In this document: piece by piece, positions 22,903-63,731 of the stretch
Position numbering within the stretch: position 1 is the first letter of the stretch
Layout: each line of letters opens with the position of its first letter
Source: a virus
DNA length: 64,000 bases
Strand: one strand, 5' to 3'
IMG/VR virus record: IMGVR_UViG_3300045988_131275
Coordinates: 116,170 to 180,169 of that record
Translations under genes and position numbers: made by a program
The notes under the pieces: generated by a model
The model's input: only the letters and a program-made list of their open reading frames with translations
What the model was told of the DNA's origin: nothing
Database searches by the model: none

Positions 22903-22920
22903 ACTACTACTCACTACTCA
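22903..22920 (+). repeat. tandem ACTACTC motif (ACTACTACTCACTACTCA)
   Basis: Core of the dispersed ACTACTCTYCTAT family, lying in the divergent control region. Confidence 0.4.
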
Positions 22921-23396
22921 GGTACAAGCCTTTCATTTTTGCCCGTTAAATTTATGTCCTGTGCTTCAATGCCTTGCAAAGTCAAAACAAAAAAGTAAGT
23001 ATTTAATTGATATAAGATCAACTCTGTACTTGCTTGAAAAAGTTTGGTCATCACAATCTTTTATTTATCTGACTTTTGACTGTCAGTGGAAATTATTATG
23101 TACAATCATGTGTATCATCACTCCTTTACTTATAAGCTGTATATTTTTGTATACCGTAATTGCCAACGGTTGAGTGCTCCACTCATTTTTATACTTGCTT
23201 TTGTAATCGGTTTACTTTTTGCAAGTGAGATACATTTGTATTACGGGAGTGTCTCCCCCGATTTTTAATTTTGATATACCAGATAAAATTATCTAAAGAA
23301 CTGGTATGGTATAGGCGATACCGCTATATTCAATTTTTAATTTTGCCTTATGTATCAACTTGTGTCAGATTATAAAACTTACATTAAGATATAGGA

Positions 23397-23446
23397 CTTA
23401 TTGACTCTGCCTGTATCATATTTTTAATGGTCTTATTGACTCTGCC
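23397..23446. repeat. 15-bp direct repeat CTTATTGACTCTGCC x2
   Basis: Exact copies at 23397-23411 and 23432-23446. Confidence 0.7.
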
Positions 23447-23504
23447 ATTAAAAACTGTATTTTGTTTTTTATCTCTGTCCCTCTGTTGATGGTATTACTA
23501 TATC

Positions 23505-23594
23505 ATAGGGTACCCTATTAGTCAATAGGTTACCCTATGATTTTTTATGTTTGTGAATTGTGTATAATTTACATATTTATATAGGGTACCCTAT
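23505..23594. promoter_or_regulatory. three palindromic operator-like sites ATAGG(G/T)TACCCTAT
   Basis: Perfect 14-bp palindrome ATAGGGTACCCTAT at 23505-23518 and 23581-23594. Variant ATAGGTTACCCTAT at 23525-23538. All lie just upstream of the rightward promoter. Confidence 0.55.
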
Positions 23595-23626
23595 TAGTAC
23601 AATATACACAAATGTCAATAGAAAAG

Positions 23627-23655
23627 TTGACAGGATAAAGCTATAATGTTAATAT
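23627..23655 (+). promoter_or_regulatory. sigmaA-type promoter (TTGACA-17-TAATAT) for the rightward genes
   Basis: TTGACA at 23627-23632, 17-nt spacer, TAATAT at 23650-23655. About 70 nt upstream of 23725. Confidence 0.6.
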
Positions 23656-23660
23656 GTAAT

Positions 23661-23670
23661 ACTACTCTTA
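23661..23670 (+). repeat. ACTACTCTTA copy of the dispersed motif at the predicted +1 of the rightward promoter
   Basis: aatACTACTCTTAcacc. CTCTT can pair with AAGAG 13 nt downstream. Confidence 0.35.
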
Positions 23671-23724
23671 CACCAAAATAAAAAGAGAATTATTACATAT
23701 ATAAATAAAGGAAGGTGTAAGAAT

Positions 23725-23913
23725 ATGGCATATAGCCCAAAATCACAAAAAGATTATAATGATAGATGTACAGTTGTAAAACTTAAATATACACCAGAAG
23801 AAACGGAAGAATGTGCAAGAATGAAACGGTATGCAAAAGATAATAACATACCAATGAGCGTATATATTAAGAAGCTAATACAGGATGATCTTGACAGAAA
23901 AGGTTATAAATAA
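23725..23913 (+). CDS. putative ribbon-helix-helix regulator
   Basis: ORF track. GGAAGGTG SD. C-terminal IPMSVYIKKLIQDDL is typical of CopG/MobC-like RHH proteins. Confidence 0.6.
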   Translation: MAYSPKSQKDYNDRCTVVKLKYTPEETEECARMKRYAKDNNIPMSVYIKKLIQDDLDRKGYK

Positions 23914-23917
23914 ATAT

Positions 23918-24364
23918 ATGATAGACGATAAAATAACAAAAGAGCACATAGAACATTTAAGAGACATAAACTATTATGATGCTTTAAAGTTGTTTGATAA
24001 TGGAAATATACGTTATTTATATGATGATTTATTTATAGAGTATATACGCCATATAATAAGGAAATGTTTATTTATAACTGACACTGACAGCATAACAGAT
24101 ATAATATATAAATTTTTTATTGTATCTGGTAACGTGTCAAGATGTTTAGATATGCTTAGATATAATAATATACAGTATAATCAAAAGTTATCAAATGGAA
24201 GATATAGAATCAATAAAGAAGATATATACAACGCCTTAAATAATGGAAGATGTGCAGATATAGAAATAGATTTTGTTGCACATTTATTGTGGTATGGAAG
24301 AAATTACAATGAATTAGATAGTTATATAGATACTATGTTGTCAAAGATAAAACAGTTGTATTAA
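23918..24364 (+). CDS. hypothetical protein
   Basis: ORF track 23885..24364. ATG at 23918 (MIDDKITKEH) avoids overlap with the RHH gene. Confidence 0.55.
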   Translation: MIDDKITKEHIEHLRDINYYDALKLFDNGNIRYLYDDLFIEYIRHIIRKCLFITDTDSITDIIYKFFIVSGNVSRCLDMLRYNNIQYNQKLSNGRYRINKEDIYNALNNGRCADIEIDFVAHLLWYGRNYNELDSYIDTMLSKIKQLY

Positions 24365-24429
24365 CCACATATAATAGGAAGTAACACAATCAACCTATTA
24401 TGATCTGCATAACCTGTTATCATGCTCAA

Positions 24430-25560
24430 AATGTACAGATAGCGTTATAAGCGTGTATTTGACGTTTTAAGGCGTTTTAATGCTTATATGATAATTATAT
24501 AGGCTCTTGCGCTTAAAGTCGTTTATATGGCGTTTTAGAGTGTTGTTTTTAGAGTAGGTTGTACTTATGAGCGTATATCTGGGTAAGTTTAGAGCGTGCA
24601 GCATGATGATATTTTAGTATCATTTTAATATATTTTTAAGTGTATTTTTACGTCGAAATGTGCGCTATTTTATGCAAGAATATTGTATATTTATACAGTT
24701 TATTTGATGTATTTTTATGCAAAAAAGTGTATAGAATAGCGTTGTTTTTTGTGTCTGGAAATAGGGAAAATATTGCGGTAAAGTGTGCGGAAAATTGTCT
24801 GATTTATGGCGTGAAGGTGGTGTAAATTTGTCTGTTTGGAGTGTGGTTTTTTATGTGATTATTGGATAATTTTATCTTGTTTTTATGTGGTTTTTATGCC
24901 ATGTAATGGGATAATTTTATTATGATCTGCTGTTATATTTTAATGCCTGGATGGTGTTAGAATGTAGTATCTATAGGCGTTTATGATGGTAGAATTGTGA
25001 TGGAATTGTTATGCAGATATGATGTAATTGTACATTGTTTAGTGTGTTAATCTATGTGTATTTACGTTGGATTATGTGAGTATTTGTGTTGTGTATTGCA
25101 TGGTATATTTAGGCATTATAATGGTAATATTATGAGCGTAATGTCAGGCGTATAGTGTGGCATATCATGGATAGATATAGATGTATATTGTAGGTTATAT
25201 GTGTAATGTGGTGTGAGATATAATGTATATTATATTGTATATTAGTGTGGATTATGTATGATATATTTGATGTTATTATGTGGGTGTGGTGTATTGAGTT
25301 AATATGATTTTGTAGTGTGTTTGGGATGTGATTTTGTCTGCTGTTGTGCGTCCAGATTGTTTTATTTCGTCCAGATTTGTGTGTTATGTGAGTGTGTTAC
25401 AATTTTTGTGTTACATTTGTGTATTATGGTGTAGTGGTGGGCTATCCCATTTTTACCGCTGTTTTTGATGGTAAAGTGGAGTGTATTAGTCTATTTTATT
25501 ACATTTTTGTGGTGTAAGTGGTGATATGATTTTGTGTTATGATTTTGTATTATAATCTTG
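24430..25560. other. ORF-free G+T-rich, C-depleted arm (plus strand)
   Basis: Direct reading: 25201-25320 contains no C at all. Short dispersed repeats occur (GGATAATTTTAT x2, ATTATGATCTGC x2, CGTCCAGATT x2). Confidence 0.8.
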
Positions 25561-25570
25561 TAATTTAATT

Positions 25571-25592
25571 TTTAGGTGTAATTACACCTAAA
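25571..25592. repeat. 22-bp perfect palindrome TTTAGGTGTAATTACACCTAAA at the end of the GT-rich arm
   Basis: Checked base by base. Same outer arms (TTTAGGT/ACCTAAA) as the palindromes at 28933 and 29132. Confidence 0.9.
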
Positions 25593-25630
25593 CGAACAGA
25601 ATTGACCAATAGTCATTTATACGCATTTTT

Positions 25631-25680
25631 TCTCTCATTTTCTCTTGTTTTCTCTAATTTTCTCACTTTTTCATTTTTCG
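25631..25680 (+). repeat. five tandem 10-bp units TCTCnnnTTT (helical phasing)
   Basis: tctctcattt / tctcttgttt / tctctaattt / tctcactttt / tcatttttcg, exactly 10 bp apart. Confidence 0.8.
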
Positions 25681-26039
25681 AGTATACTATAATAATATTT
25701 ATAATTGTCTATACAATTCAATCTGCCCGTCCCGTGATCCTGTCCAGAATCATGATAAAATTTTAGTTTCATCACACTAACTTTTGTTTATCTGGTATAC
25801 CGCCCCTTGTTTTTTGCCATGTTAAAAATGTCAAGAAATAACAAAACTTGACTTTTTTACACTTCCCTCAAAAGTGTGAAAGTTAGTTTTAGTCAACAAT
25901 AGCAAGGCTTTTCGGGATTTTATATCAGAGTACATTAATCCAATTTTATAATCATGTTTTACTATTGTATACCAATATGATGGGGATAGTTTACATTTAT
26001 AGAAATAACACAATACTGTCATATTCCCTGATGTGTTCA

Positions 26040-26930
26040 ACTCACACTGCTCGTCCAAAAATCAAAACTGGTAATCTATCCACACTCCACACTCACCTCA
26101 ACAAAAAATTCCTATCCTCATCCCACATTACAAATTGTATAAAATCTACACACAATTCTCCAAAATAATCAAAATGAGTTCGACACCGACTTCGACCGCA
26201 CCCTTACATATCAACGCAAAATAAATTTTCTGACAATTCTAAAACACCAATTTTCACCCAAAATTACCTGCCCTAAATCACAAAATCCCTTGCAAATCCT
26301 ATCTATTATCGAAGTCCTCTCGAAGTGATGCCAATGTGATCACAATTACAATTCCAGATATTTCACTCCATCTTAATCCTGTATTATCACAAATTTCCTT
26401 ATATTTCCTATCTAAAACGCAGCAATCACTTCCTATAATAAGCACATATCACCACCCCATTTTAACCAAAATAACCACCCAAAACACCTATCTCGAAGTC
26501 CATATTTTTACATCCTCAAAAACATCTATCTGAATTGTGTCAAACTTTCACACAATTCTAATTGATAAAATTCACTCAAAAAATACATCATAGCAATCTC
26601 TAAAATCAATTCTATACTCACTATTCTAATGTACAACTTAAAATAAACATTACAACTACCCTCACCTGAACAACTTAGCATCTGTACATTACAATTTTCA
26701 AATTAAATCTACATCATATAATCTACAACAAAATATCTCAAACAGAGAATCTTGTATAGGAAAATAAGAAGGGGGGGTACTTTTACATCTATAGAAAACC
26801 ACTACTCTCATATCCCATCTATCCCCAAATTTTCACCAGTAAAAAATAGATCCTATTTATTTCAAATGGAGAATCTATAACCAGAAACATATAAACCAAA
26901 TATGAGAGAAATATTAATCATCAAAATAAA
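26040..26930. other. ORF-free A+C-rich, G-depleted arm (plus strand)
   Basis: Direct reading: 26101-26160 has a single G and 26581-26640 has two. Rare G islands are TCGAAGT(C/G) x3 (26309, 26320, 26493) and a G7 run (26771-26777). Confidence 0.8.
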
Positions 26931-26951
26931 ATAAAAAAGGAGATTACTCAA

Positions 26952-27554
26952 ATGACATATTCAATTAACGATTTAATATCAACATTAATTTGTTCATCAT
27001 CCAATTATCCGATTATATCTTTTTCAGCATATTTAAGAAATAAGTATAACAATTTCGATTGTGATTACTGGGAAAGACATTTATATGAATCTGGATTATT
27101 GAATGATAAATATGAATACTTATCTGAGATATTTAACAATTATAAAATTGAGATATCATCGGCAGCATACAATCAGATTGAAATGATAACAAACAAATAT
27201 CTTACCGATAAGAAAATATACATACCAGGATTAACATCAAAACCATATTATTACTATCCATCAAGAGGAAATAGTAAATCAATCAGAGAGATATGTTATT
27301 TCATAAAGTCAATATCAGATTTAGAAAAAGAAAAGAATCAATTTTCATATAATCCGTATTTAGCAAAATATACAGCACAAAATTATAAAGCTGATATAGA
27401 GAATTTATACAAGAGAAGAATTTCTCAAAAGATACTTAACTCATATGAAACACAAAATAACTCTACAAAACAGAGAAGTAATAACAAAGAAGAAATGAGC
27501 TGCTTAAAAATTATTGCCGATAGAAACAATACAAATAAGAAATTTCACAAATAA
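26952..27554 (+). CDS. hypothetical protein
   Basis: ORF track. AAGGAG SD. First gene after the non-coding region. Confidence 0.6.
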   Translation: MTYSINDLISTLICSSSNYPIISFSAYLRNKYNNFDCDYWERHLYESGLLNDKYEYLSEIFNNYKIEISSAAYNQIEMITNKYLTDKKIYIPGLTSKPYYYYPSRGNSKSIREICYFIKSISDLEKEKNQFSYNPYLAKYTAQNYKADIENLYKRRISQKILNSYETQNNSTKQRSNNKEEMSCLKIIADRNNTNKKFHK

Positions 27555-30224: not shown

Positions 30225-30479
30225 ATGACAGAAACAGAAACCAGAAGAAACCATGAATACAACTACAACAAATATTATACCATGCCAAGTAGAGAAGAAT
30301 TACATAGAGAGTATGGTGGAAATATTTGTGAATCAGATTTTAATATTGTGAGAGGTAAAAATCAGAGTCGTTCAATCAATGCTGATAAAATCGGATCTGC
30401 TTGGAGTTTTGATATTCGGTGCTTACAGAATATTGAGAAAAGAGATAGAAAGGTTGAAGAAAATAATGGAAACAATTAA
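30225..30479 (+). CDS. hypothetical protein
   Basis: ORF track, rightward array. Confidence 0.55.
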   Translation: MTETETRRNHEYNYNKYYTMPSREELHREYGGNICESDFNIVRGKNQSRSINADKIGSAWSFDIRCLQNIEKRDRKVEENNGNN

Positions 30480-30783
30480 AAATTTATCAGTGGGAATTGA
30501 AGAACAAGAAACACATATTAGTTATATGAGAGATGAATCTTATGCGAAAGTTTACACATCTGATTCTACTCAAATGACTAGGTTGGATAAACTTTGTAAA
30601 ACAAATCCTGATATGTATGAACTCATCGAAAATACAGGTCGTGGAAAAAGTTATTTAATTTCAGATAAAGGACTTATCTCATTTAGGGCAAAGAAACGAG
30701 AAATGACAGAAGAACAAAAACGTATTGCTGCGGATCGTATGAGAAAACTACATGACAGTGGATTAATGTCAAAAAATAAATAA
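30466..30783 (+). CDS. hypothetical protein
   Basis: ORF track 30379..30783. ATG at 30466 (METIKNLSV) overlaps the end of the upstream gene. Confidence 0.55.
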   Translation: METIKNLSVGIEEQETHISYMRDESYAKVYTSDSTQMTRLDKLCKTNPDMYELIENTGRGKSYLISDKGLISFRAKKREMTEEQKRIAADRMRKLHDSGLMSKNK

Positions 30784-30985: not shown

Positions 30986-31426
30986 ATGAGAAAAATGGAT
31001 TACAAATATTTCTCAAAAGCCAAGCAGATTGCACAGGTGTCTGATTTTCCAAAGGTACATATCGGATGTATTGCCGTTTATCAGAATCGAATTATTGGAA
31101 TTGGTTGTAATACAAATAAAACCCACCCAACTCAGAAGTATTATAACCGATACAGAATAGATGACAACGATTTTGATAATTCTGAATCACTTCTACCAAA
31201 ACTCCACGCAGAAATTAATTGCATAAATCAACTGAAACATTTGAACATTAATTTTTCAAAAGTGAAGTTGTACATATATCGTACTAGGAAAGATATTGTG
31301 TGCGGAATGGCTAGACCTTGTGCAAGCTGTATGCAAGCAATAAGAGATTTGGGGATTAGAGAAATATATTATACGACAAATGATGGTTATTCATATGAAA
31401 AATTAGAGAAAGGATGTGTTGCTTAA
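30986..31426 (+). CDS. dCMP / cytidine deaminase (zinc-dependent)
   Basis: HAEINCI and PCASCMQAI (HAE...PCxxC) motifs at the right spacing, with a ComEB-like length. Confidence 0.85.
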   Translation: MRKMDYKYFSKAKQIAQVSDFPKVHIGCIAVYQNRIIGIGCNTNKTHPTQKYYNRYRIDDNDFDNSESLLPKLHAEINCINQLKHLNINFSKVKLYIYRTRKDIVCGMARPCASCMQAIRDLGIREIYYTTNDGYSYEKLEKGCVA

Positions 31427-31651
31427 TGGTGTGAGCAGGTTGTCACATAAGCTATTGTCCATCAACGTGTCCTAACTATATTCCTGAGAATGTAACTCAC
31501 TACTGCTCTATTTGCGGTAATGGAATTTACAACGGAGAAGAATATATTAGGAACGATGACGACGATTATGCTCATTGGGAATGTATTGATTATAAGAAAG
31601 ACTTAGCTGAATGGCTAGGTTATGAGATTAGAATTATGGAGGAAGATTAAA

Positions 31652-32534: not shown

Positions 32535-35303
32535 TTGAGTAAACATTTGACATCACAAAGATATGTATTTAAAATTCATTCTTCAAGACTTAGAAGAAAA
32601 AAATGGAATTTAAAATTGACACCAAATCAAGCAAGAGAAAATCAAGAGCTTATTGCTTTAAGCGAAAGTCAAATAATGAGATTTATTGATGAGATAAATA
32701 ATATCACAGATACAGAACTTAAAATTTCAAATATTAAATCTGAAATCAAGAAATTAAAATTTGAGAAAAATTTATCTATATCAAGACCTAAAATCAAGAA
32801 GTTATATAATGATTTAGATAAATATCAATTCAAAAAGGATTATGTGTGTGTTGTAATTGATAAGGTTAAAGATTTTGAATACATTTATAAACATGGCTTT
32901 AAAATCAACAATGTTACATATAGATGGTTACTTGGAACTACTGGTGGAGTAAAAAACAATACTGTAGTATTTGTAAATGAAAAATTACTACCTGAATTAA
33001 AAAAACGTATAGATAACGGTCGAAATTTACAAAAAGAATTTGCTCCTGCAAAACTTGAAGCTTATATTGCTCTGGTATGCAGCTCTTCTATTCCTGTATC
33101 AATGCCAAATGGGATCGTTGTTGTTCATGATTGTATTACAAAATTCAAATCAGATGTAATTGAATTAGATGATACTGGACTTGATCAACCAAGTATGAAA
33201 TTTATTAAAAATAAAGATGTAGAGCTAAACGATAGTGACGGATATGGACTTGCTATGCCATCTCTTATGGAACGTTGGGGATATGAAATCGGAGAAGATT
33301 TTTTATTACCTGGTTGTGTTATTAGAAATTCATTTTGTAAAGGTGCTGTATTTCCTATTGATTTTCAGAAGTTTGCACAAGATCATGGTTTTACAGAAAT
33401 AACAGATGTGTGGGGAAATACATATGACATTAATGAAATAGAACTCATTTTAACAGAGTCGATGCTAAAATTGTGGGACTCCTATTCTTCTCTTGAATCA
33501 TATCTTGAAAATTGTGAAAAGAATCATTACACATTTGCAATTACAAAAGCTTCGGAAGAAGAATTAGAAAATGTAAGAACAATGAATTACCAGTTTTTAC
33601 AAAGTTATGATTTTACAGATGAACAAATTGATGAATTAATCGCACCAACTGTAAATGAAATTAAAGAAATTTTAGATGATGATTATAGAAAAACAATATT
33701 ATACACAAAAGGTATAGGACTTAATGAGAAAAATATTCAACATTTAGATAGTTCATTTGCAACAGCATTGATGATTGAACCTGAAATGGCTAATGATCCA
33801 TTTATCAAATCCCAGATTCACTCCATGATTAGAAAGCGTATTGATGAAGCTAAAGTTGGGGTTTTAAAAGTTCCTGCAAATTATTCCTTAGTATCAGGAG
33901 ATCCGTATTCTCTATGTCAGTCCATGTTTGGAATGAAAGTTACTGGACTATTAAAAGCTGGACAAGTCTATTCTAAATATTGGATTGATAAAGGTGTTGA
34001 TAAAATTGTAAGTTTTCGTGCGCCAATGACCTCGCATAATAATATCAGGCTTCTTGAAGTTGTACATAATGAAACAATGGATGAATTTTATCAATATATG
34101 ACAACTCCTACTATTTTTAATAGTTGGGATACATGTGCGGAAGCGATGAATGGTTTTGATAAAGACGGAGATTGTGTAATTAATACTTCATTTGATCTAT
34201 TAGTAAAAAATACTAAACGATTACCTGCTATTGTATGTGTGCAAAGAAAAGCTCCAAAATGTATTCCTACAGATGATGATATTATGAGATCAAATATTAA
34301 TAGTTTTGGAAATGCCGTAGGTGGAGTAACAAATAAAATTACATCAATGTTTGAAGTTAAATCGAATTTCGCACAAGGAACAAGAGAATATAATTTGCTC
34401 GATTATAGAATCAAATGTGGTCAGTTATACCAGCAAAATGCGATTGATAAAACTAAAGGGATTGAGGCGAAACCAATGCCTGATAATTGGTATAACTGGA
34501 TTTCAAATAAACTTACAAAAGCAAAAGACTCTCACCAGAAAAAAGAATTTTGGATCAACCGAAAAATTATCGCAGATAAAAAGCCTTATTTTATGCAATA
34601 TATTTATCCATCAGAACGCATAGAATTAAATAATTATCGTAAGAAAAATAATGAAAAGTGTCTTATGAGATTTAGAATTTCTCTTGATGAATTAATGTAC
34701 AAAGAGAATAAATCAAGAGAAGAAAATAAATTTATTAAGTGTTATTATGATCGAATGCCACTCGGTATGGGTAAATGTACAATTAATAAAATTTGTTGGA
34801 GAATTGAAGAAAAGTTTGATAACCTTGTTTACTCTTCTAATGAAAATTTTGATTATTCTATTATGAAGAGTAATGTAACATATTCGGATGCGGTGTATAA
34901 GAAAATTAAAAAAATATATGAAACTTATAGAAAAGAAATATCTAGTTACATGCAATATGCTAAATCCGAAAGGCTTAAATCAGATGAACGTCAAATTCAA
35001 AAATATATACTAAAAGAACAATTTAAAGAAAAATGCCTATTAGAGTGTCCTAATGAAGATGAGTTATGTAATATTGTTTTAGATTTATGTTATTCAAAAT
35101 CTAAATATAGTAAACAATTTGCATGGGATATTTGTGGTGAAGTATTTATACAGAATTTATTAAGACGTAAGAATTATAAAATCTCATATCCAACACTTGA
35201 TGATAATGGAAATATTGAGTATTTAGGCATGAAATTTTCTATGAAAGAAACTGAAATTAAAGTAAATGTAGATTTGGAGGACAATGAATGCCAGTTGTAT
35301 TAA
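32535..35303 (+). CDS. YonO / cellular-RdRP-like single-subunit (two double-psi beta-barrel) RNA polymerase
   Basis: Collinear signature blocks: VTYRWLLGTTGGVKNNTVVFV, NDSDGYGLAMPSL, VSFRAPMTSHNNIRLLEVV and FDKDGD (DxDGD metal site, nt 34158-34172). TTG start after GGAGGT. Confidence 0.7.
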   Translation: MSKHLTSQRYVFKIHSSRLRRKKWNLKLTPNQARENQELIALSESQIMRFIDEINNITDTELKISNIKSEIKKLKFEKNLSISRPKIKKLYNDLDKYQFKKDYVCVVIDKVKDFEYIYKHGFKINNVTYRWLLGTTGGVKNNTVVFVNEKLLPELKKRIDNGRNLQKEFAPAKLEAYIALVCSSSIPVSMPNGIVVVHDCITKFKSDVIELDDTGLDQPSMKFIKNKDVELNDSDGYGLAMPSLMERWGYEIGEDFLLPGCVIRNSFCKGAVFPIDFQKFAQDHGFTEITDVWGNTYDINEIELILTESMLKLWDSYSSLESYLENCEKNHYTFAITKASEEELENVRTMNYQFLQSYDFTDEQIDELIAPTVNEIKEILDDDYRKTILYTKGIGLNEKNIQHLDSSFATALMIEPEMANDPFIKSQIHSMIRKRIDEAKVGVLKVPANYSLVSGDPYSLCQSMFGMKVTGLLKAGQVYSKYWIDKGVDKIVSFRAPMTSHNNIRLLEVVHNETMDEFYQYMTTPTIFNSWDTCAEAMNGFDKDGDCVINTSFDLLVKNTKRLPAIVCVQRKAPKCIPTDDDIMRSNINSFGNAVGGVTNKITSMFEVKSNFAQGTREYNLLDYRIKCGQLYQQNAIDKTKGIEAKPMPDNWYNWISNKLTKAKDSHQKKEFWINRKIIADKKPYFMQYIYPSERIELNNYRKKNNEKCLMRFRISLDELMYKENKSREENKFIKCYYDRMPLGMGKCTINKICWRIEEKFDNLVYSSNENFDYSIMKSNVTYSDAVYKKIKKIYETYRKEISSYMQYAKSERLKSDERQIQKYILKEQFKEKCLLECPNEDELCNIVLDLCYSKSKYSKQFAWDICGEVFIQNLLRRKNYKISYPTLDDNGNIEYLGMKFSMKETEIKVNVDLEDNECQLY

Positions 35304-36040
35304 ATGAAATAAAACAAGCAGAAACAATATTAGAGAAAGGGGAAGTTGGTAATAAACCAACTTCCACCTTATTCTTACTATCTAAATATTATCGTCAAAA
35401 ATTAAAATTATCCGAGAATAAAACTTCTGAAAAACTTAATGAGTTTATGGATAACAATTATAAAAATTATAATCCTGTATTATGGGAAGATATAATTGAA
35501 GATATTTCTCGAAAAGGCAAAAAATATGAATTAAGGAATATTGAGCATATTGGAATTACTCAATCTGAATTAGATACTATTGAATCTACAAAAACGAAGA
35601 ATCATAAAAAATTACTATTTACAATGTTATGTTTTGCAAAATTATACAATATTATATCTATAAATAACAATAATTGGATCAATTCAGATATAAAAGAAAT
35701 ATTTAAAACTGCAAGAGTGATCGTTAAACATAGAGATGATAAATTCTTATTGCTAAATGATTTGGAATCGAATGGTTATATTTCTTTTTCTAGTAAGAAT
35801 GATAATCTTAATATGAAAATTAATTTTATTGATAATGTTAATGATTCAATATTATATATTACTGATTTTAGAGAATTAGGGTATGAATATCTTAATTATA
35901 CAAAAGATGGTAATTTTACAAGATGTAAAATTTGTAACAGATTAATAAGAAAAACAAGTAAAAATATTCAGTATTGTGCAGAATGTAAAGAAGATAAACG
36001 GCTTGAGACAAAAAGAAAATGGTGGAGTAATAAAGAATAA
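35288..36040 (+). CDS. hypothetical protein with C-terminal zinc ribbon
   Basis: ORF track. CKICNRLIRKTSKNIQYCAECK. Overlaps the end of the RNAP gene. Confidence 0.6.
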   Translation: MPVVLNEIKQAETILEKGEVGNKPTSTLFLLSKYYRQKLKLSENKTSEKLNEFMDNNYKNYNPVLWEDIIEDISRKGKKYELRNIEHIGITQSELDTIESTKTKNHKKLLFTMLCFAKLYNIISINNNNWINSDIKEIFKTARVIVKHRDDKFLLLNDLESNGYISFSSKNDNLNMKINFIDNVNDSILYITDFRELGYEYLNYTKDGNFTRCKICNRLIRKTSKNIQYCAECKEDKRLETKRKWWSNKE

Positions 36041-36222: not shown

Positions 36223-36834
36223 ATGATTTTAAAAGAATCATATCGCTATCAGAACTTTCTTACAAATCTTATTAGCAGCGCACAGACATATCTTGGAAAT
36301 GTATCATTCGTCATGACAACAACTCAAAAGCATATGAAAAGCAAAGCTAATCCAGAAGCATCTGATGATGATTTGGAAGTTCCAAAATCTTATAATGTAG
36401 ATTTTACGCCAACTCAACTGGTGGATTTTCTTATGGATGCAATTCAAGAAAAACAAAAGTTGTCTGATGCTATCACAGAAGCTAAGAAAAATACTGAAAT
36501 TGATTTAGATTCTTCTTATGCCATGAATAAAACAAAACAAAGTCTTGCTAAAGTTTTCAAGACAATGGCTGGCAGAAAAGCTACTGATACTGAAAAGCAA
36601 GGTCGAGATTATAGATTCAATGTCAATCAAGAGCAGGTTGCTTATACATACACTATCAAAGAAGTTACTCAACTGGATTATGATAGAAATGTAGTTAAAG
36701 CACTTGCAAAGAAATTAGCAAAAGAAACAGATGAAGTTTCAACTAAACTTGATCAGCTTGAGCTTACTACTCTTGTTAATCATGAACCAAAGTATGATAT
36801 GAATGATACATTAGAGGATATTGTGGTGAAGTAA
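36223..36834 (+). CDS. hypothetical protein
   Basis: ORF track. AAGGAGAA SD. Confidence 0.6.
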   Translation: MILKESYRYQNFLTNLISSAQTYLGNVSFVMTTTQKHMKSKANPEASDDDLEVPKSYNVDFTPTQLVDFLMDAIQEKQKLSDAITEAKKNTEIDLDSSYAMNKTKQSLAKVFKTMAGRKATDTEKQGRDYRFNVNQEQVAYTYTIKEVTQLDYDRNVVKALAKKLAKETDEVSTKLDQLELTTLVNHEPKYDMNDTLEDIVVK

Positions 36835-36842
36835 AATTCACC

Positions 36843-36856
36843 ACTACTCTTCTATT
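36843..36856 (+). repeat. ACTACTCTTCTATT copy of the dispersed intergenic motif
   Basis: Follows hairpin GTGGTGAA (36823-36830) / TTCACCAC (36837-36844) right after the stop of 36223..36834. Confidence 0.4.
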
Positions 36857-37459: not shown

Positions 37460-37533
37460 TGCAGAGTGGAGCAGTCTGGAAGCTCGTCTGGCTCATACCC
37501 AGAAGGTCATAGGTTCAAATCCTATCTCTGCTA
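37460..37533 (+). tRNA. tRNA-Met (anticodon CAU) with initiator-like features
   Basis: Cloverleaf: acceptor (U)GCAGAG/CUCUGC(U), U8, D stem GAGC/GCUC, anticodon arm UCUGG-CUCAUAC-CCAGA, T arm AUAGG-UUCAAAU-CCUAU, A73. No encoded CCA. U1xU72 mismatch and A11:U24. Confidence 0.8.
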
Positions 37534-37546
37534 TTACTCTCCTACT
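37533..37546 (+). repeat. ATTACTCTCCTACT copy of the dispersed motif abutting the tRNA 3' end
   Basis: TCTCC pairs with GGAGA 5 nt downstream (37547-37551). Confidence 0.35.
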
Positions 37547-37602
37547 TGGAGAAATAAATGCAAAGGACGTGAATTGTTATAAAAGCAATTAGTAAAAAAG
37601 AA

Positions 37603-39060: not shown

Positions 39061-39690
39061 ATGAATAAAAGAAATATGGAATTATCGGATAAAGAATATG
39101 ATGAACTTGCTGAAAAATTAGATGCGGAGCAGGTCATTCTTGAAGATACGGATTTGATTAATAATCAATTTGAAAATCTTCTAAAGCATAGAATTATTCT
39201 TATTAACGACATTATTAGTAACCTTACAATTGATAAAATTGTTATGCCACTGTTACAGATGGATAATGACGGAACAGGTGAGAAAATTACTATTTATCTG
39301 AATAGTAATGGCGGATCTACATTTGACGGGTTGGTCTTATGTAATATTATTGAAAGATTAAAAACACCAACGGAAGTTATTGTGCTTGGATATGCATATT
39401 CTATGGGAAGTATTATTCTCATGTCTGGTAAAAACAATCCAAACGTAACTAGAAAATGTTATCCATTTAGTACAGCTCTTATTCATGGTGGTTCTGCTTA
39501 TATTGGTGGAACTTCCAGTCAAGTAAAAGATTATTTTAAATTCAATGAAAAATTTGAGAAACGTATTGCAGATTTTATTGTATCACATACAAATCTCTCA
39601 GAAGATGACTATGCCGCTATCGAGAGATATGAAGCATATATGGATTCTGATGAAATGTTAGAAAAAGGTTTAGTAGACGAAATTATCTAG
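39061..39690 (+). CDS. ClpP-family serine protease
   Basis: ITIYLNSNGGSTFDGL, GYAYSMGSIIL (Ser) and ALIHGG (His) are collinear with ClpP (INSPGG...G.AaSmg...imiHQP). Confidence 0.75.
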   Translation: MNKRNMELSDKEYDELAEKLDAEQVILEDTDLINNQFENLLKHRIILINDIISNLTIDKIVMPLLQMDNDGTGEKITIYLNSNGGSTFDGLVLCNIIERLKTPTEVIVLGYAYSMGSIILMSGKNNPNVTRKCYPFSTALIHGGSAYIGGTSSQVKDYFKFNEKFEKRIADFIVSHTNLSEDDYAAIERYEAYMDSDEMLEKGLVDEII

Positions 39691-39720
39691 GAAGAGTGGT
39701 TATTACTACTCTTCTATTTT
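39691..39720 (+). terminator. intrinsic terminator containing motif copy ACTACTCTTCTATT (39705-39718)
   Basis: GAAGAGTGGT (39691-39700) / ACTACTCTTC (39705-39714), loop TATT, then TATTTTT. Confidence 0.65.
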
Positions 39721-39753
39721 TATGAAAATATATAGATTCAAGGAGAAGAAAAC

Positions 39754-45671: not shown

Positions 45672-45685
45672 ACTACTCTCCTATT
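45672..45685 (+). repeat. ACTACTCTCCTATT copy of the dispersed intergenic motif
   Basis: TCTCC pairs with GGAGA 9 nt downstream. Confidence 0.4.
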
Positions 45686-45830: not shown

Positions 45831-45866
45831 CTAAAGATGTTTGCGAGTGGAAAGCAAGAAATTAGA

Positions 45867-48053: not shown

Positions 48054-49746
48054 TGAAATTAACTTCGCTACGCAATGTGAACAGGATAGAATTATTCAAT
48101 TAGAAGATGAAAGTATATTTGGCAAGCATTTGTGGAATTATTATGAGTTTATTAGTTGGGCGAAATGGTATCCAGATTTATATGTAGAGCTTTTTAAAGG
48201 GAAAGATAGTAATAGGCAATTGCATTTTGACCAAAGAACATTTATGAGAGCTGATATGCGTTTTATGAGTATGTATGGTACATTCAGTCGTGGATATGCG
48301 AAAACATATACAGAAATGCTTGATGATATGATCGCAGGAACTTTGTTTCCCAATATTACGATGTCTGTAACGGCTCAAACACGTGAAAACAGTGCCGCTT
48401 TAATGGAAGACAAATACAATGAAATTTTAACTGATTTCCCTCTTTTCGAAAATGAAATTGAGAAAGTACGATTTTCAAAAAATGACGCACTTATACAATT
48501 TAAAGGTGGAGCAAAAATTACAAATCTTGCAAATGCACAAACGTCAAAAGGTAGAAGAAGAAATCGCATTAAGATAGAAGAATCTGCACTTTTAAATAAT
48601 GCTCTTTTTGAAGATGCTCTAGCTCCTATTGTTGAAGTTGGTAGAACGACTTGTGGAAGTCTTGCGATTATTGATCCAGAAGAATTGAACCAACAAATTC
48701 ATTTCTTTACTACAAGTGGTTATAGAGGTACAGATGAGTATAATCGAAGTGTAAATATGGTAAAAGGAATGGTTTCGTGTAATGGCGAAATCGTACTAGG
48801 TTCTGACTGGATGCTTCCTTGCTATTATGGTCGTGGTTCTACAAAAGCACAGATTTTAAAGAAAAAGAAAACTTCTAATCCTATTTTCTTTGCTCAAAAC
48901 TATGAACAAAAATGGGTAGGATGTGCGGATAATGCTCTTGTTGATGTGAATAAACTAATGGCTTCTCGTATTCTTACAGAACCAATATTAGAAATGCAAC
49001 GAGAAACTGATGAGTTTTATATCGCAGTAGATGTTGCTCGTAGTGAAAATACAAGTAATAACCAGTCTGCTATTGTTGTATTAAAAGTATTAAGAAGTCC
49101 TGTAAATAAACGTGTCGTAGATATTCAAGCGGTGAATGTATTAGGTGTATCAAATAAAATGAATTTCAAAAATCAAGCTTGTCTAATAAAGAAATTGAAA
49201 CGTCAATATAAAGCAAAAATGGTAATTGTTGATGGAAATGGATTGGGATCTGGTCTTGTGGATCAGCTTTTATTAACATCTTATGATCCTGTTACAGGAG
49301 AAAATTTAGGGTGCTTTGATACAATTAATACAGATAATAAACCAGAAGTTGACAATGCGGAAAAATGTTTATTTGATATGAAAGCACAAGGTCAACAGAC
49401 AAAGGTTGTTTCATATTTCATTAATGCAGTAGATAGCAATATTTTACATATGCTTATTAGAAAGCAAGAACAAGATTTTACAGATAAAGAAAGAGAATTT
49501 TTTGATAAGAATGTTGCTCCGTTTATGAATACGGAGCTTTTATTTATGGAAATTACAAACTTACGATTAAAAGTTTTATCTGGAAATAATCTTACAGTAG
49601 AAAAAGTAGTTAAAAAAATTGATAAGGATAAATTTTCGGCTTTATCTTATGGAATATTTTATATTATGGAATTTTGTAATAAGGATAAAGAACCTGAAAC
49701 AGACTACTCTTCTGCCCCCATCTGTGCATCATCAATATCATTCTAA
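48040..49746 (+). CDS. terL: terminase large subunit
   Basis: ORF track 48028..49746. ATPase-like YGTFSRGYAKTY. Nuclease-fold acidic motifs YIAVDVARSE and MVIVDGNGLGSGLVDQL. Followed by the portal gene. Confidence 0.75.
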   Translation: MKTHDEINFATQCEQDRIIQLEDESIFGKHLWNYYEFISWAKWYPDLYVELFKGKDSNRQLHFDQRTFMRADMRFMSMYGTFSRGYAKTYTEMLDDMIAGTLFPNITMSVTAQTRENSAALMEDKYNEILTDFPLFENEIEKVRFSKNDALIQFKGGAKITNLANAQTSKGRRRNRIKIEESALLNNALFEDALAPIVEVGRTTCGSLAIIDPEELNQQIHFFTTSGYRGTDEYNRSVNMVKGMVSCNGEIVLGSDWMLPCYYGRGSTKAQILKKKKTSNPIFFAQNYEQKWVGCADNALVDVNKLMASRILTEPILEMQRETDEFYIAVDVARSENTSNNQSAIVVLKVLRSPVNKRVVDIQAVNVLGVSNKMNFKNQACLIKKLKRQYKAKMVIVDGNGLGSGLVDQLLLTSYDPVTGENLGCFDTINTDNKPEVDNAEKCLFDMKAQGQQTKVVSYFINAVDSNILHMLIRKQEQDFTDKEREFFDKNVAPFMNTELLFMEITNLRLKVLSGNNLTVEKVVKKIDKDKFSALSYGIFYIMEFCNKDKEPETDYSSAPICASSISF

Positions 49747-59047: not shown

Positions 59048-60343
59048 TTGAGTAATCAAAAAATAATGCCTAAATTCAAATTAGAAATTGGAGCATTCTT
59101 AGTTTCTGATAAAAGACAACTTCAAATTATTGATCGTGAATATAGACCTAAGATAAAATATAAAAACGATAAACCATTTACATCAAATGAAAAATGGTAC
59201 AAATATAAATGTTATAAGTGTGGAAATACTGATTGGGTTATAGAGCAAGCATTATGTGGAAAACAAAAGATTGGATGTAACGTATGTTGCAACTCTCCAT
59301 CAAAAGTTGTTAGTGGTATAAATGATTTAACTATTACCGCAAGATGGATGATTAAATATTTTGAAAATCCAAAAGATGCAGAAAAATATACCAGAGGTTC
59401 AAGTAAAATTGTTGATATGGTTTGCCCCGATTGTGGTAGACATCACAAGAATAAAATATCCACAGTATATGCGAATCATAATCTTTCATGTCCATGTCAA
59501 GATGGTTGGAGTTATCCAAATAAATTTATGTATTCAGTTTTAGAACAATCAGGTGTGAACTTTGAAACTGAGAAAGTTTTCGATTGGTCTAAAGGAAGAA
59601 TGTACGATGATTATATAGAATATAATGGTTTAAAGATTATTACTGAACAGCATGGAATACAACATTATATAGATCATCCACTTAATAAAAAATCACGCAA
59701 TCTTAAAGAAGAACAAGAAAATGATAAACTGAAATACAATTTAGCTATACAAAATGGTATAGATTATTATTTTACAATTGATTGCAGAGAATCTACAAAA
59801 GAACATATTAAAAATTCTATCATAAATTCTGAATTATTTAAAATCTTAAATATAAATCCAGAAAATATCAATTTTGATAAATGTGATAAATTTGCTTCAT
59901 CAAATATGGCTAAACAAGTATGTGATTATCGTAATGAACATCCTGGTATGACAATGAAAGAAATTGCGCCATTATTTCATGTATGTCACGATACTATAAG
60001 AAATTGGGTTAAAAAAGGTGCAAAACTTGGTTGGTGTACATATAAGAAATTTGATGATTTAAAATTACACTATCGACGTGAAGATATACCTGTGAATAAT
60101 TGTCCTATCCACTGTATCACTACCGATACATACCATCGTAGTGCAACAAAATTTGTAGAATATTATCAATCTCTTACAGGAAAGAAACTTTGTGCAAGAA
60201 ATATTCGTTCAGTATGTACAGGTAAACGTAATCATGTCAATAATATGAAATTTGAATACATTACTCAAGAACAATTCAATCAATTAAAAGAAGAATATCC
60301 AAACAAAGTATACGGAGAACTATTTGTATCTCACGCATCATAA
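59048..60343 (+). CDS. putative free-standing homing-endonuclease-like protein (zinc ribbons plus HTH)
   Basis: CYKCG..CNVCC and CPDCG..CPC zinc ribbons. VVSGINDLTITARW resembles the G.NDL.T..P motif of phage zinc-ribbon endonuclease-associated domains. HTH MTMKEIAPLFHVCHDTIRNWVKKG. Interrupts the tail module. Confidence 0.45.
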   Translation: MSNQKIMPKFKLEIGAFLVSDKRQLQIIDREYRPKIKYKNDKPFTSNEKWYKYKCYKCGNTDWVIEQALCGKQKIGCNVCCNSPSKVVSGINDLTITARWMIKYFENPKDAEKYTRGSSKIVDMVCPDCGRHHKNKISTVYANHNLSCPCQDGWSYPNKFMYSVLEQSGVNFETEKVFDWSKGRMYDDYIEYNGLKIITEQHGIQHYIDHPLNKKSRNLKEEQENDKLKYNLAIQNGIDYYFTIDCRESTKEHIKNSIINSELFKILNINPENINFDKCDKFASSNMAKQVCDYRNEHPGMTMKEIAPLFHVCHDTIRNWVKKGAKLGWCTYKKFDDLKLHYRREDIPVNNCPIHCITTDTYHRSATKFVEYYQSLTGKKLCARNIRSVCTGKRNHVNNMKFEYITQEQFNQLKEEYPNKVYGELFVSHAS

Positions 60344-61763: not shown

Positions 61764-61786
61764 AATTGTAGTTAGGAGAAGAAAAT

Positions 61787-62542
61787 ATGAAGAAAAGCTT
61801 ACTCAAGGTAAAAAATACAATCACATTTGAAGATAAACTCAATGCAATTGATCTCATTCTTGGTTCATTTTGGGATGATAACACAGGAGAATATATTCCG
61901 TGGATGGAAGAACCTGCGAGAATTATTGCCGTTGCAAAATATTTTATTGAAGGATATGAACTTGAAAAAGGAGAAAATCTGTATAAGTTATATCTTTCAG
62001 ACGATGATTTAAAAGGTCTGGTTGATAATTTTATTAATCCTGACACTGATTCAAGAAATGGAAGTTATAAAAGATATATTAAGGTTATGGATTTTGTAGA
62101 TGAAATGGTTCATGACAAACTTGAATGGACTAAGCAGAATATCATTCATGTACATCCAGATATGGATAAAATTGTAGAATGTGCAAATGTCATTATTGAT
62201 TCGTTTAAAAATTTTGCTAATCTTGACCTTACTGCTCTCACACCAGAAATGATTGAGAATGGGAAAACATTTATTGATAAATTAAAAGAAACTGGTTTTG
62301 ATGTTTCACCAGAGAATCTTACTAAGATTGTAAAAGATGCTGCCGCTTTTGATATCGACAAAGCAAGCCAAGATATTATTGATGCTAAGAATGAGCAGAT
62401 TAAGAAATTACAAGAAGAAAATCGAGAACTCAAAAAAGTTAAAGGAAATTTTAGTGCTAGAAATGTAATGAATGATGGTTCTGGTAATAAAAACAATAAC
62501 AAGACTGGAACTAAAGTAACAACAATGGATAAAAAGAAATAA
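61787..62542 (+). CDS. hypothetical protein (coiled-coil C-terminus)
   Basis: ORF track. AGGAGAAG SD. Confidence 0.55.
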   Translation: MKKSLLKVKNTITFEDKLNAIDLILGSFWDDNTGEYIPWMEEPARIIAVAKYFIEGYELEKGENLYKLYLSDDDLKGLVDNFINPDTDSRNGSYKRYIKVMDFVDEMVHDKLEWTKQNIIHVHPDMDKIVECANVIIDSFKNFANLDLTALTPEMIENGKTFIDKLKETGFDVSPENLTKIVKDAAAFDIDKASQDIIDAKNEQIKKLQEENRELKKVKGNFSARNVMNDGSGNKNNNKTGTKVTTMDKKK

Positions 62543-62593
62543 AAATTAACATTTGATACTGGTAAAATATTTCGCCACACCAGTTCTCAACTA

Positions 62594-62683
62594 TTAGCGT
62601 GAAACGTGATCGTAAATATTTAAGCCCACGTTTACCATATTTACCACTAAGCTAATTAGTGATATTACAATACCGTAATTCAT
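62594..62683 (-). CDS. 29-aa hydrophobic peptide, type I toxin-like
   Basis: GGAGG (62694-62698) 10 nt before ATG at 62683. MNYGIVISLISLVVNMVNVGLNIYDHVSR. Opposite strand to all surrounding genes, with its own promoter and a ~170-nt structured leader. Confidence 0.5.
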   Translation of the reverse strand: MNYGIVISLISLVVNMVNVGLNIYDHVSR

Positions 62684-62858
62684 GTATGTATACCTCCTTA
62701 CCAAAATAATATATCTATGATAAAAAGTCATAGAAACTTTCAGCGTAGAGGATATGGGTTCACGCCTGCCCGTAGGCGACCGCATAGTTGAGAAACTGGT
62801 TCCCTGAGAATGGAAGTACATTCTCAAGATATCTTTTGAATATCTCCACCCAAGGAAT

Positions 62859-62887
62859 ATTTTACCAGATTATATTATGTAGTTCAA
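62859..62887 (-). promoter_or_regulatory. sigmaA-type promoter (TTGAAC-17-TAAAAT) for the reverse-strand peptide transcript
   Basis: Reverse strand: TTGAAC (62887-62882), 17-nt spacer, TAAAAT (62864-62859). Confidence 0.6.
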
Positions 62888-62912
62888 TACAGAACATTTG
62901 TTTAAGAAGAGT

Positions 62913-62926
62913 ACTACTCTTCTATC
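62913..62926 (+). repeat. ACTACTCTTCTATC copy of the dispersed motif
   Basis: Near-palindrome AGAAGAGTA-C-TACTCTTCT. About 20 nt upstream of the GGAGG of 62946..63311. Confidence 0.4.
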
Positions 62927-62945
62927 TCATATGGAGGAAATTATT

Positions 62946-63311
62946 ATGGGAATAATTATGGATGCAATTGATGCACAAATTATTAGACCAAGAGTTGAAG
63001 CTGCTGAACAAGAAGGTTTTCAAATGACTCAGACAGATATTCAGAATTTTTATTCAAGTGGATCGCCTGTAAAATATATCAGAACTGGGACATATGAAAG
63101 TTCACCCCGTTCATCTGGTGTATCTGGTGGTAACGGAAATTACCATTATGATATTCATTTGAATGTAGCGGAATATCCCTACGGACAACATAGTGGTTTG
63201 CAGATTATGACAGATATCCAAAACAATGGTAGCGGAGTTTTGGGTACTCCTGGCACATGGGATGATGCTGTACAAGATATTATAGAAGCCGTAAAAGCTA
63301 ATTTTAGCTAA
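62946..63311 (+). CDS. hypothetical structural-module protein
   Basis: ORF track 62898..63311. ATG at 62946 (MGIIMDAIDAQ) follows GGAGGAAATTATT. Confidence 0.55.
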   Translation: MGIIMDAIDAQIIRPRVEAAEQEGFQMTQTDIQNFYSSGSPVKYIRTGTYESSPRSSGVSGGNGNYHYDIHLNVAEYPYGQHSGLQIMTDIQNNGSGVLGTPGTWDDAVQDIIEAVKANFS

Positions 63312-63590
63312 GAGGTTAGCCACCAAGAATCTATAAGAAATGTCATAAACCTTTATCAGAGAGTTTAATCCAAGACTCAAGATTAGGAAGTTATCTTACC
63401 TATTTGGTAAGGATCGCCAATGCTCTGACACATGTTCCCATCTTTGCAGACGAAAACGCCAGTAGGCATTGACATGTACTATGTATGGGTAAGCACACAT
63501 AAACATGTAATCACCTTCCTTTCCTTAATATTTGCATATCTTGGAAAACTTGGTGGCTTAGATATGGAACAGATACGTTCCACGATTGGT

Positions 63591-63619
63591 ATTATAACAT
63601 ACTTTGTGGAACGTATCAA
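63591..63619 (-). promoter_or_regulatory. consensus-like sigmaA promoter (TTGATA-17-TATAAT) embedded in a 12-bp inverted repeat
   Basis: Reverse strand: TTGATA (63619-63614), 17-nt spacer, TATAAT (63596-63591). Flanked by GATACGTTCCAC (63572-63583) / GTGGAACGTATC (63606-63617). Confidence 0.6.
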
Positions 63620-63700
63620 ATAAAAATAATGCAACAATTAAACAAAAATGAATTCTAAATTTCATCGTGCGATATTTAGACAATTCAAGAAGTATAGTTT

Positions 63701-63731
63701 ACTCTCCTTTCTTTCGGAGAGTTTTATTTTT
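63701..63731 (+). terminator. hairpin plus T-run containing an ACTCTCC motif copy
   Basis: ACTCTCC (63701-63707) / GGAGAGT (63716-63722), then TTTTATTTTT. Immediately upstream of the RBS of the next gene. Confidence 0.5.

Follow-up and report, generated by a model that had tools for sequence, protein, structure and literature searches.

The window analyzed here, a 64,000-nucleotide (nt) stretch of the IMG/VR virus record IMGVR_UViG_3300045988_131275 (positions 116,170 to 180,169), consists of a leftward gene arm (1-22817), a switch region and a rightward arm that runs from about 23700 to the window end. Its subject is a 13-base signal, ACTACTCTYCTAY, that sits ahead of rightward genes, together with the RNA polymerase (RNAP) encoded in the same arm. 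The rightward arm starts with an anti-repressor-like gene, followed by dCMP deaminase, a CoiA-like nuclease and an open reading frame (ORF) of 922 amino acids (aa); downstream of this ORF lie PhoH, ClpP, a YonJ-like exonuclease and an HU-like protein, and then a tyrosine recombinase, a GmrSD-like protein, a GIY-YIG endonuclease, a terminase-like gene and the structural genes. No close match to the window was found among deposited phages. Because Anaerobutyricum hallii genomes hold annotated proteins at least 90% identical to the 922-aa polymerase, the element is assigned by homology to the SPbeta-like prophages of a gut Lachnospiraceae bacterium, with the cluster members pointing to A. hallii.

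The polymerase gene is the following feature:

32535-35303, + strand: gene for a YonO-family single-chain (two-barrel) RNA polymerase, 922 aa, identified by tblastn and by the DKDGD alignment

A first-pass annotation, made from the letters of the window and its ORFs, had already called this gene a polymerase, and the call is borne out by homology. In tblastn searches, the ORF matched Clostridium phage c-st (42% identity), Enterocloster phages (39%) and SPbeta YonO (27% over residues 121-732, two thirds of the protein; E = 7e-29), and some of the matched records carry the annotation DNA-directed RNA polymerase. The metal-binding DxDGD motif is present, with GFDKDGD in the window aligning to QFDNDGD in YonO and to DFDGD in a Mediterraneibacter hominis prophage (L062). 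PHROG matches were limited to families of unknown function, and the ORF had no Pfam match and no PDB sequence match; PF05183 (RdRP) is present in some members of the YonO family. Homology thus identifies the product as a phage RNA polymerase of the two-barrel family of SPbeta YonO, and not of the N4 or T7 type. Such YonO-type polymerases are the smallest known relatives of cellular multisubunit RNA polymerases and have been proposed to be ancestral-like (PMC5467207). In L010 (10001-13875), L014 (10001-13873), c-st and the Enterocloster phages CB473P3 and CB457P1, the match to the polymerase either extends over about 3.9 kb rather than 2.8 kb or falls into two to three pieces over several annotated ORFs, which suggests insertions (an intron, an intein or a homing endonuclease) in the polymerase gene.

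The 13-base motif is real. Exact copies of ACTACTCTYCTAT occur at 36843, 39705, 45672 and 62913, all four on the + strand, where none is expected; allowing up to two mismatches gives 18 matches against 3.5 expected, 17 of them on the + strand. An unbiased k-mer scan of the rightward arm against an order-3 Markov background returned ACTACTCT and CTACTCTT as the top 8-mers (10 observed, 0.6 expected) and ACTACTCTTCT as the top 11-mer (5 observed, 0.01 expected), with motif words leading from 8- to 11-mers. The first-pass annotation had proposed enrichment by strand and intergenic position as a check and had described the polarity as that of the rightward genes; beyond the enrichment over background, ACTACTCT occurs 10 times on the + strand and never on the - strand, always between 23661 and 62913 and thus in the rightward arm, while the 22.8-kb leftward arm has zero copies on its own sense strand. 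The 8-mer is found within genes as well, at 28086 and 36766. The same asymmetry is found in 65 related loci (19 surrounding the polymerase gene, 46 a structural gene), where the exact 13-mer is present 54 times on the gene strand (27+27) and never on the opposite strand, and its one-mismatch variants 96 times (38+58) against 2 (1+1). Ranked by strand asymmetry, CTCTCCTA (49:0) and TCTCCTAT (51:1) lead all intergenic 8-mers, above the words of ribosome-binding sites (RBSs). A conserved, enriched, asymmetric word of about 22 to 24 bits, in many intergenic copies oriented with the genes, is what a phage-RNAP promoter would look like. Some polymerase genes of a second subfamily (L062 11004, L066 5503, L140 11025, L141 11010 and L144 10992) contain ATTACTCTCCTAT or ACTACTCTCCTAT; this is an in-gene look-alike that exists because the encoded peptide (N-Y-S-P-I-I) is conserved, and it is a trap for motif counts.

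The copies in the window, together with the tRNA gene that abuts one of them, are as follows (naked denotes copies that lack an upstream complementary arm; class D, those with a downstream GGAGA partner):

23661-23673, + strand: 3'-degenerate copy ACTACTCTTACAC, starting at about +1 of a sigmaA-like rightward promoter; 64 nt to the ATG at 23725
26801-26813, + strand: naked, 3'-degenerate copy ACTACTCTCATAT, no structure (z = +1.4); 151 nt to gene 26952, conserved in L001 and L015
30787-30799, + strand: naked copy ACTACTCTTCTAC, no structure (z = +0.3); 4 nt past the stop of 30379-30783, heading the block of dCMP deaminase, CoiA-like nuclease and RNAP
31499-31511, + strand: possible variant ACTACTGCTCTAT with 2 mismatches, in the gap 31426-31622 before the CoiA-like and RNAP genes
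36843-36855, + strand: exact copy, 9 nt past the stop of 36223-36834; a 600-nt leader and tRNA-Met come next; compound hairpin 36812-36854 (dG -19.4, z = -4.1) with no T-run
37460-37533, + strand: tRNA-Met, its last base being the first base of the next motif copy
37533-37552, + strand: class D copy ATTACTCTCCTAC (z = -2.2)
39690-39722, + strand: terminator-type copy of 11 pairs with 5' arm GGAAGAGTGG, the motif (39705-39717) as 3' arm and a T-run (dG -15.3, z = -4.6); 15 nt past the ClpP-like stop and 49 nt before the next ATG
41235-41264, + strand: terminator-type copy GGAGAGTA / TACTCTCC, motif at 41247-41259, then TATTTTA (z = -3.6); 48 nt from the motif to the HU-like gene at 41295
43618-43640, + strand: variant copy ACTACTGCCCTAT with the compensating 5' arm AGGGCAG and no T-run (z = -2.9); 90 nt from the motif (43628) to gene 43718
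45672-45695, + strand: exact class D copy (z = -2.3), preceding the GIY-YIG gene and the packaging and structural block
49703-49715, + strand: copy ACTACTCTTCTGC in the last 44 nt of the terminase-like ORF, no structure; 59 nt before the next gene
62905-62925, + strand: hairpin copy AGAAGAGT-ACT-ACTCTTCT with no T-run, motif at 62913-62925; ATG 33 nt past the motif start

Eight of these copies are solid or likely (30787, 36843, 37533, 39705, 41247, 43628 with the stem variant CTGCCCT, 45672 and 62913), and the three 3'-degenerate ones (23661, 26801 and 49703) are probably related. Of the roughly 12 sites proposed by the first-pass annotation, the eight solid copies and 23661 stand, one of them shifted by a base (41247 instead of 41248), while 26801 and 49703 had been missed and four sites are doubtful: 22903 is a different element, ACTACTCAC, which lies in the 5' region of the leftward gene and which relatives keep in this form; 45809 and 8417 match the motif weakly and lack structure; and 63701 is an ordinary terminator with its pyrimidine arm on the 5' side. 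That every copy is intergenic likewise holds for the good copies and fails at 49703. An ordinary terminator at 42218-42255, GGTGCGTGGGT...CTTACGTACT plus a T-run, stands just before the recombinase gene, and its tail ACTATTTTTCTAT is a two-mismatch look-alike of the motif.

Several copies can be followed into relatives. The 36843 13-mer recurs identically in L003 (15347) and L005 in a non-homologous context, so that one word joins modules having neither the upstream gene nor the downstream sequence in common (36843 versus L003), and the 49703 copy is kept in relatives down to 69% protein identity (L132) though the 10 nt upstream of it differ. In the M. hominis prophage L062 the 13-mer persists, at the 39690-39722 site among others, between flanking proteins that are only 46 to 62% identical. 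Thus, conservation does extend beyond the stem, as had been noted earlier, and the exactness of the word in non-homologous contexts exceeds what a terminator needs. At the places homologous to the tRNA gene at 37460-37533 (in L001, L002, L004, L007, L010 and L062), the tRNA is Met, Ser or Asn, yet TTACTCTCCTAYTTGGAGAAATA follows directly 3' of whichever tRNA occupies the place, in L062 too; the tRNA cargo has therefore been swapped at a fixed junction.

To obtain contexts that are independent of each other, instances with at most one mismatch were clustered by their downstream sequence, which gave 58 contexts; a copy was assigned to the hairpin class when an upstream arm of at least 7 bp was present. 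A start codon with an RBS lies a median of 52 nt (hairpin copies) or 61 nt (naked copies) past the motif start; the distance is about 30 to 70 nt, and in many contexts only 29 to 35 nt. Hairpin copies start a median of 19 nt past a stop codon, and naked copies a median of 217 nt past the previous one; the latter are therefore placed by the downstream gene and not by the end of the upstream gene. The distance across the 5' untranslated region is in this sense independent of upstream gene ends, which is also expected of phage-RNAP promoters. In addition, at least six independent contexts have a tRNA gene (Trp, Tyr, Glu twice, Asn and Lys) that begins 2 to 12 nt past the end of the motif or its hairpin, where about 0.3 such cases would be expected by chance, as estimated from the motif density.

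These positions bear on the two functions, promoter or terminator, between which the first-pass annotation had left the choice. Since copies stand 2 to 12 nt before tRNA genes and 29 to 35 nt before start codons, termination is not the function that the copies share, and the other half of the proposal, a recognition element, is the better supported. Among the 16 terminator-like sites on the + strand of 22001-62000, only 2 use the motif and the other 14 have unrelated stems, so terminators here need no motif. After the terminator-type copies only 38 to 52 nt are left to the next ATG, too little for a sigma-type promoter plus an RBS, and expression of the downstream genes must therefore depend either on read-through or on starts at the motif itself. 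In the 62913 copy, 17 nt separate the motif start from the beginning of the RBS, which places any start site inside or just after the 13-mer. The motif was also considered as a -35 or activator box of a sigma-type promoter and rejected, given that the RBS follows only 17 to 40 nt after the motif start, and sigma-70-like hexamer pairs beside the copies were inconsistent, except for the one at 23627-23655.

The first-pass annotation had described the motif as almost always one arm of a hairpin. Upstream arms are indeed real at 39690, 41235, 43618 and 62905, and of 47 instances, 17 have an upstream stem of at least 8 bp, where shuffled flanks would give 1.7. However, only 25 of the 58 contexts have an upstream complementary arm; the other 33 (57%) are naked, and in the window the copies at 30787, 26801 and 49703 are structureless (z = +0.3 to +1.4). 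Downstream arms, which the earlier description had counted as well, were not enriched over shuffled flanks, the exception being a recurrent CTCTCCTAY-N2-8-GGAGAAAT at 37533, at 45672 and after tRNAs in relatives; orthologues of the 45672 copy in L097 and L101 add an upstream arm. For an unbiased test of the covariation that had been noticed among the stems, only AGAGT, which pairs with motif positions 4 to 8, was sought upstream. Opposite the variable position 9, all 18 motifs with T then had A, and 13 of the 15 with C had G, so the covariation extends to related phages. The orthologues of 39690-39722 covary as well, as do those of 62905 (GAAGAGT/ACTCTTC, GGAGAGT/ACTCTCC and GGAGGGT/ACTCTCC).

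Most hairpin copies continue into TATTTTT and naked copies do not (runs of at least six T in 19 of 62 hairpin instances versus 16 of 250 others), and the 62 hairpins include 50 T:G or G:T wobble pairs, which on the template strand would be A.C mismatches. Because the T-run goes with the hairpin class and the wobbles fit the sense strand only, the hairpins look like RNA intrinsic terminator hairpins laid over the motif. The remark that some copies resemble ordinary terminators agrees with this, since 39690-39722 and 41235-41264 combine a stem-loop with a U-tract (the terminator pattern covers 39690-39715 and 41235-41256), and so does the remark that several copies lack a T-run, which is the case at 43628 and 62913. 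A stem with no U-tract is found at 43618-43640, 62905-62925 and 36812-36855, and no stem at 30787, 26801 and 49703.

One could regard all copies as intrinsic terminators of the host RNAP that spread by duplication or recombination, with the naked copies as decayed remnants. The excess of upstream stems, the tie between T-runs and hairpins, the short distance of hairpin copies from stop codons and the two full terminator patterns in the window all speak for such a family, and about 40% of contexts share with intrinsic terminators a GC-containing, covarying stem-loop with a T-run right past a stop codon. Yet terminators need structure, and their sequence drifts while the structure is kept, whereas here the 3' arm is the same fixed 13-mer across non-homologous contexts and across flanking genes of 46% identity (L062), with only position 9 and the 5' arm covarying. 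Naked copies keep the exact word in diverged, non-homologous contexts, which decay would not do; most contexts are hairpin-free; some hairpins have no T-run (43628, 62913, L016 and L130); and tRNAs or start codons follow immediately, while the 14 other terminator-like sites use unrelated stems. Only a subset of the copies qualifies as intrinsic terminators, and a pure terminator family appears improbable.

The same hairpins had led the first-pass annotation to the precedent of N4, a phage that likewise has a polymerase of its own and whose virion RNAP promoters are short hairpins preceding the transcription units. If this held here, the phage RNAP would recognize an extruded DNA hairpin that holds the motif, and the tight 3-nt-loop hairpins with no T-run at 62905-62923 and at L016 11065 (directly before a tRNA), like the covariation in general, could be taken in this sense. 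In contrast to N4, the hairpin is optional, with 57% of contexts having none instead of one at every promoter; it is compatible with the sense strand only, its wobble pairs being mismatches on the template strand; and it correlates with the T-run, a mark of RNA terminators. Moreover, the only polymerase found is the two-barrel YonO-type enzyme, which is unrelated to the N4 virion RNAP. The motif is not a member of the N4 hairpin-promoter class, and we consider recognition of an extruded hairpin highly improbable.

A more serious rival places the 13-mer at the RNA level, as a cis element in the 5' untranslated RNA whose pyrimidine box resembles an anti-Shine-Dalgarno (anti-SD) sequence. A phage or host factor could bind this box, or the box could pair alternately with the upstream purine arm (forming the terminator) or with the downstream GGAGA or RBS, and either would control read-through, translation, processing or stability. 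We take this possibility seriously because of the anti-SD-like core, the hairpin copies and the copy at about +1 of a host-type promoter: at 23661, TTGACA (23627-23632), a 17-nt spacer and TGtTAATAT ending at 23655 are followed after 5 nt by the motif, so that the transcript would begin with it. Independent conservation of this promoter-plus-motif layout was looked for and could not be claimed, the module being common only to near-identical relatives. The covariation at position 9, the sense-only wobbles, the recurrent CTCTCCTAY-N2-8-GGAGAAAT partner and the survival of the motif across an exchange of the RNAP for one of 24% identity all fit an RNA element. On the other hand, 33 of 58 contexts offer no pairing partner, downstream arms do not exceed shuffled controls, and in many copies the bases ACTA contribute nothing to pairing. 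Thirteen invariant bases far exceed the needs of known single-stranded RNA-binding sites or of an anti-SD box, and the tRNA genes within 2 to 12 nt are left unexplained. A factor binding the 3' arm would, in addition, have to outcompete hairpin folding, and we know of no established antitermination route of this kind. All in all, we regard an RNA-level element as rather unlikely.

The motif could also be a DNA site of another protein, either a late-gene activator or repressor that works with the host RNAP, or a recombination or nicking site, for example of the tyrosine recombinase (42402-43442) acting at module junctions by the logic of integron attC sites. High information content, strict strand polarity, the location of copies at mosaic junctions, the recombinase gene among them and the independence of the motif from the RNAP subfamily would all be compatible with this. 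Yet an activator box at -35 would put the start some 35 to 40 nt downstream, past the RBS in many contexts (29 to 52 nt from motif to start codon), of the related loci, only 8 of 19 and 1 of 33 have a homologue of the recombinase near the RNAP, attC-type sites need the hairpin that most copies lack, and nicking or recombination gives no reason for a fixed distance to start codons. Such a site therefore seems to us a poor candidate.

The reading that we favor, albeit tentatively, is that ACTACTCTYCTAY could well be a compact, strand-specific initiation signal for the phage's own YonO-type polymerase, frequently fused to a terminator. It is the most economical one because it accounts for an asymmetric word of 22 to 24 bits, co-oriented copies, placement upstream of genes and tRNAs, portability between modules and the presence of a polymerase of the phage's own. 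We infer that the motif acts on DNA: the YonO-type polymerase, alone or with a partner, would read the signal about 30 to 70 nt upstream of genes of the rightward arm, or a few nt upstream of tRNA genes, and start within the 13-mer or a few nt after it. At sites soon after the end of an upstream gene, the motif would have acquired a purine-rich 5' arm (AGAAGAGTAGT or GGAGAGTA) and a T-run around it, so that RNA arriving from upstream would fold into an intrinsic terminator with the motif as its 3' arm, giving terminator-plus-restart junctions at module boundaries.

Such an arrangement has partial counterparts. T7-class promoters are conserved asymmetric words in many copies, co-oriented with the genes, intergenic and often located just after terminator or processing hairpins. 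Like those of T7, T3 and SP6, the present motif is a co-oriented multicopy word at a short 5' untranslated distance in a phage with its own polymerase; unlike them, it would be served by a two-barrel enzyme unrelated to T7 RNAP, measures 13 nt instead of about 23, often doubles as the 3' arm of a terminator and does not co-vary with polymerase divergence. Arbiol et al. (2010) reportedly described PeSL cassettes, consisting of an early promoter plus a stem-loop, at the module borders of T4-type phages. Their promoters are of the host sigma70 type and adjoin the stem-loop. In both cases, a repeated composite of promoter and stem-loop marks the borders of exchangeable modules, but in the present phage the putative start signal forms an arm of the stem-loop and is presumably read by the phage polymerase.

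Several observations weigh against the motif being a YonO start signal, whose support comes from sequence comparison within this phage and its relatives. First, the motif is kept together with RNAPs that are only 23 to 24% identical to that of the window (subfamily B): 80 subfamily-B loci carry the 13-mer with the same polarity (11:0 for exact copies, 34:3 with one mismatch). Second, no such word was found in PMBT24, an Enterocloster phage with an RNAP of 39% identity: the top-ranking k-mer of this phage, GCTACTGCT, belongs to coding sequence (Ala-Thr-Ala), and no intergenic word recurs in its tightly packed late region. The motif thus does not co-vary with polymerase specificity, as a promoter would be expected to, and its independence of polymerase phylogeny implies either recognition by an unusually stable, conserved core or another reader. 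Third, the terminator-type copies would give a U-run as the initially transcribed region. Fourth, the core TCTYCT is complementary, with wobble, to AGGAGG and in this respect anti-SD-like, and many copies lie in covarying RNA hairpins. Finally, SPbeta has been reported to have one YonO start site, not a dozen (PMC5467207).

It is tempting to speculate that ACTACTCTYCTAY is the promoter of YonO-type polymerases across a large group of SPbeta-like gut Lachnospiraceae prophages, terminator-fused and recognized through the polymerase core, although we regard this wider statement as somewhat more tentative than the one for the present phage. If it is true, polymerases of 24% identity read the same word alike, which would point to the conserved catalytic core as the part that recognizes it. 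Near the RNAP, no partner protein common to all motif-bearing phages was found, only the RNAP, the exonuclease and HU being shared. A 250-aa ORF without a Pfam match (35288-36040), which overlaps the polymerase stop codon, adjoins the polymerase in 18 of 19 loci of the window's subfamily versus 0 of 33 of the other subfamily, and the subfamily-B loci lack it; its product may be a partner of the polymerase or a specificity factor. The 5' end of this ORF contains a strong hairpin (35341-35365).

The natural reference for any YonO promoter is SPbeta, where YonO has a start site of its own upstream of yonK, at position 2225998 of Bacillus subtilis 168, and transcribes the late genes from it (PMC5467207). 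The sequence of that promoter was explicitly left undefined in 2017 (Forrest et al., PMC5467207), and we found no later paper defining it in the literature searched. The two phages share the polymerase family and a synteny of RNAP, HU-like gene, long noncoding leader, small gene, exonuclease and terminase; they differ in that SPbeta has one start site and one long operon, against about 11 sites here. The SPbeta start, P_YonO, falls in a 198-bp bracket between the published primer-extension primers. Inside this bracket, SPbeta (L020, NC_001884 54000-66000) has a pyrimidine box, CTACTCCCTTCTTTTCTGTAT, on the minus strand at about 6517-6497 of this locus, corresponding to about 60516-60496 of NC_001884; related boxes, CTCACTCCCTTTCATA and TTCTCACTTTCATA, occur in SPbeta-like Bacillus prophages (L021 14686, L022 about 7905 and L023 about 13720), and the boxes lie 55 to 85 nt upstream of a conserved GTCGGATAATA block. 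The form CTACTCCCTTCT..TAT may be related to the motif and is partly conserved, which is a weak lead. A position weight matrix built from the clade of the window does not rank the P_YonO region first, a further point against the motif as a YonO signal, so the resemblance stays a lead. CTACTC[CT] was tried as a family-wide signal and rejected, since its 2:1 bias toward the + strand in 72 YonO prophage loci is equally present in coding DNA and hence uninformative, and searches with C-rich variant words were too noisy.

Should the motif be the start signal, it would be the first testable promoter for the YonO-type polymerase family, and the question of how YonO finds its genes would become directly testable, the candidate being short, sharply delimited and conserved in many relatives. 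A compact orthogonal transcription system for Firmicutes might also be derived from it. A start signal fused to a terminator arm would be an unusual and economical form of insulation, in which the same 30 bp at each module would both halt host or upstream transcription and restart that of the phage, and this would help to explain the mosaic exchange at these sites. If the motif acts in RNA instead, it would represent a 13-nt leader element common to many uncultivated gut phages.

Outside the motif and the polymerase, the region 22817-23725 has the makeup of a lysis/lysogeny-type switch, with three ATAGGGTACCCTAT-type palindromes (23505-23518, 23525-23538 and 23581-23594), a direct repeat CTTATTGACTCTGCC at about 23397 and 23432, and the near-consensus extended -10 promoter (23627-23655) described above. 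From the first rightward genes to gene 26952, a stretch of 2.6 kb (24364-26952) contains no ORF above 75 aa on either strand, and an Rfam search of 24300-27000 gave no match even at E <= 1; it may be a large noncoding RNA or leader, comparable to the yonN-yonK gap of SPbeta. Two tRNAs were the only matches to known RNA families in the window, one of them a tRNA-like gene on the - strand at 66-140 (56 bits for the Rfam tRNA model) to which ARAGORN assigns no anticodon. Lastly, the GIY-YIG endonuclease with several helix-turn-helix domains (45837-46823), just ahead of the packaging genes, and a protein with a homing-endonuclease-like domain within the structural block (59048-60343) look, from their domains, like free-standing homing endonucleases in the late region.

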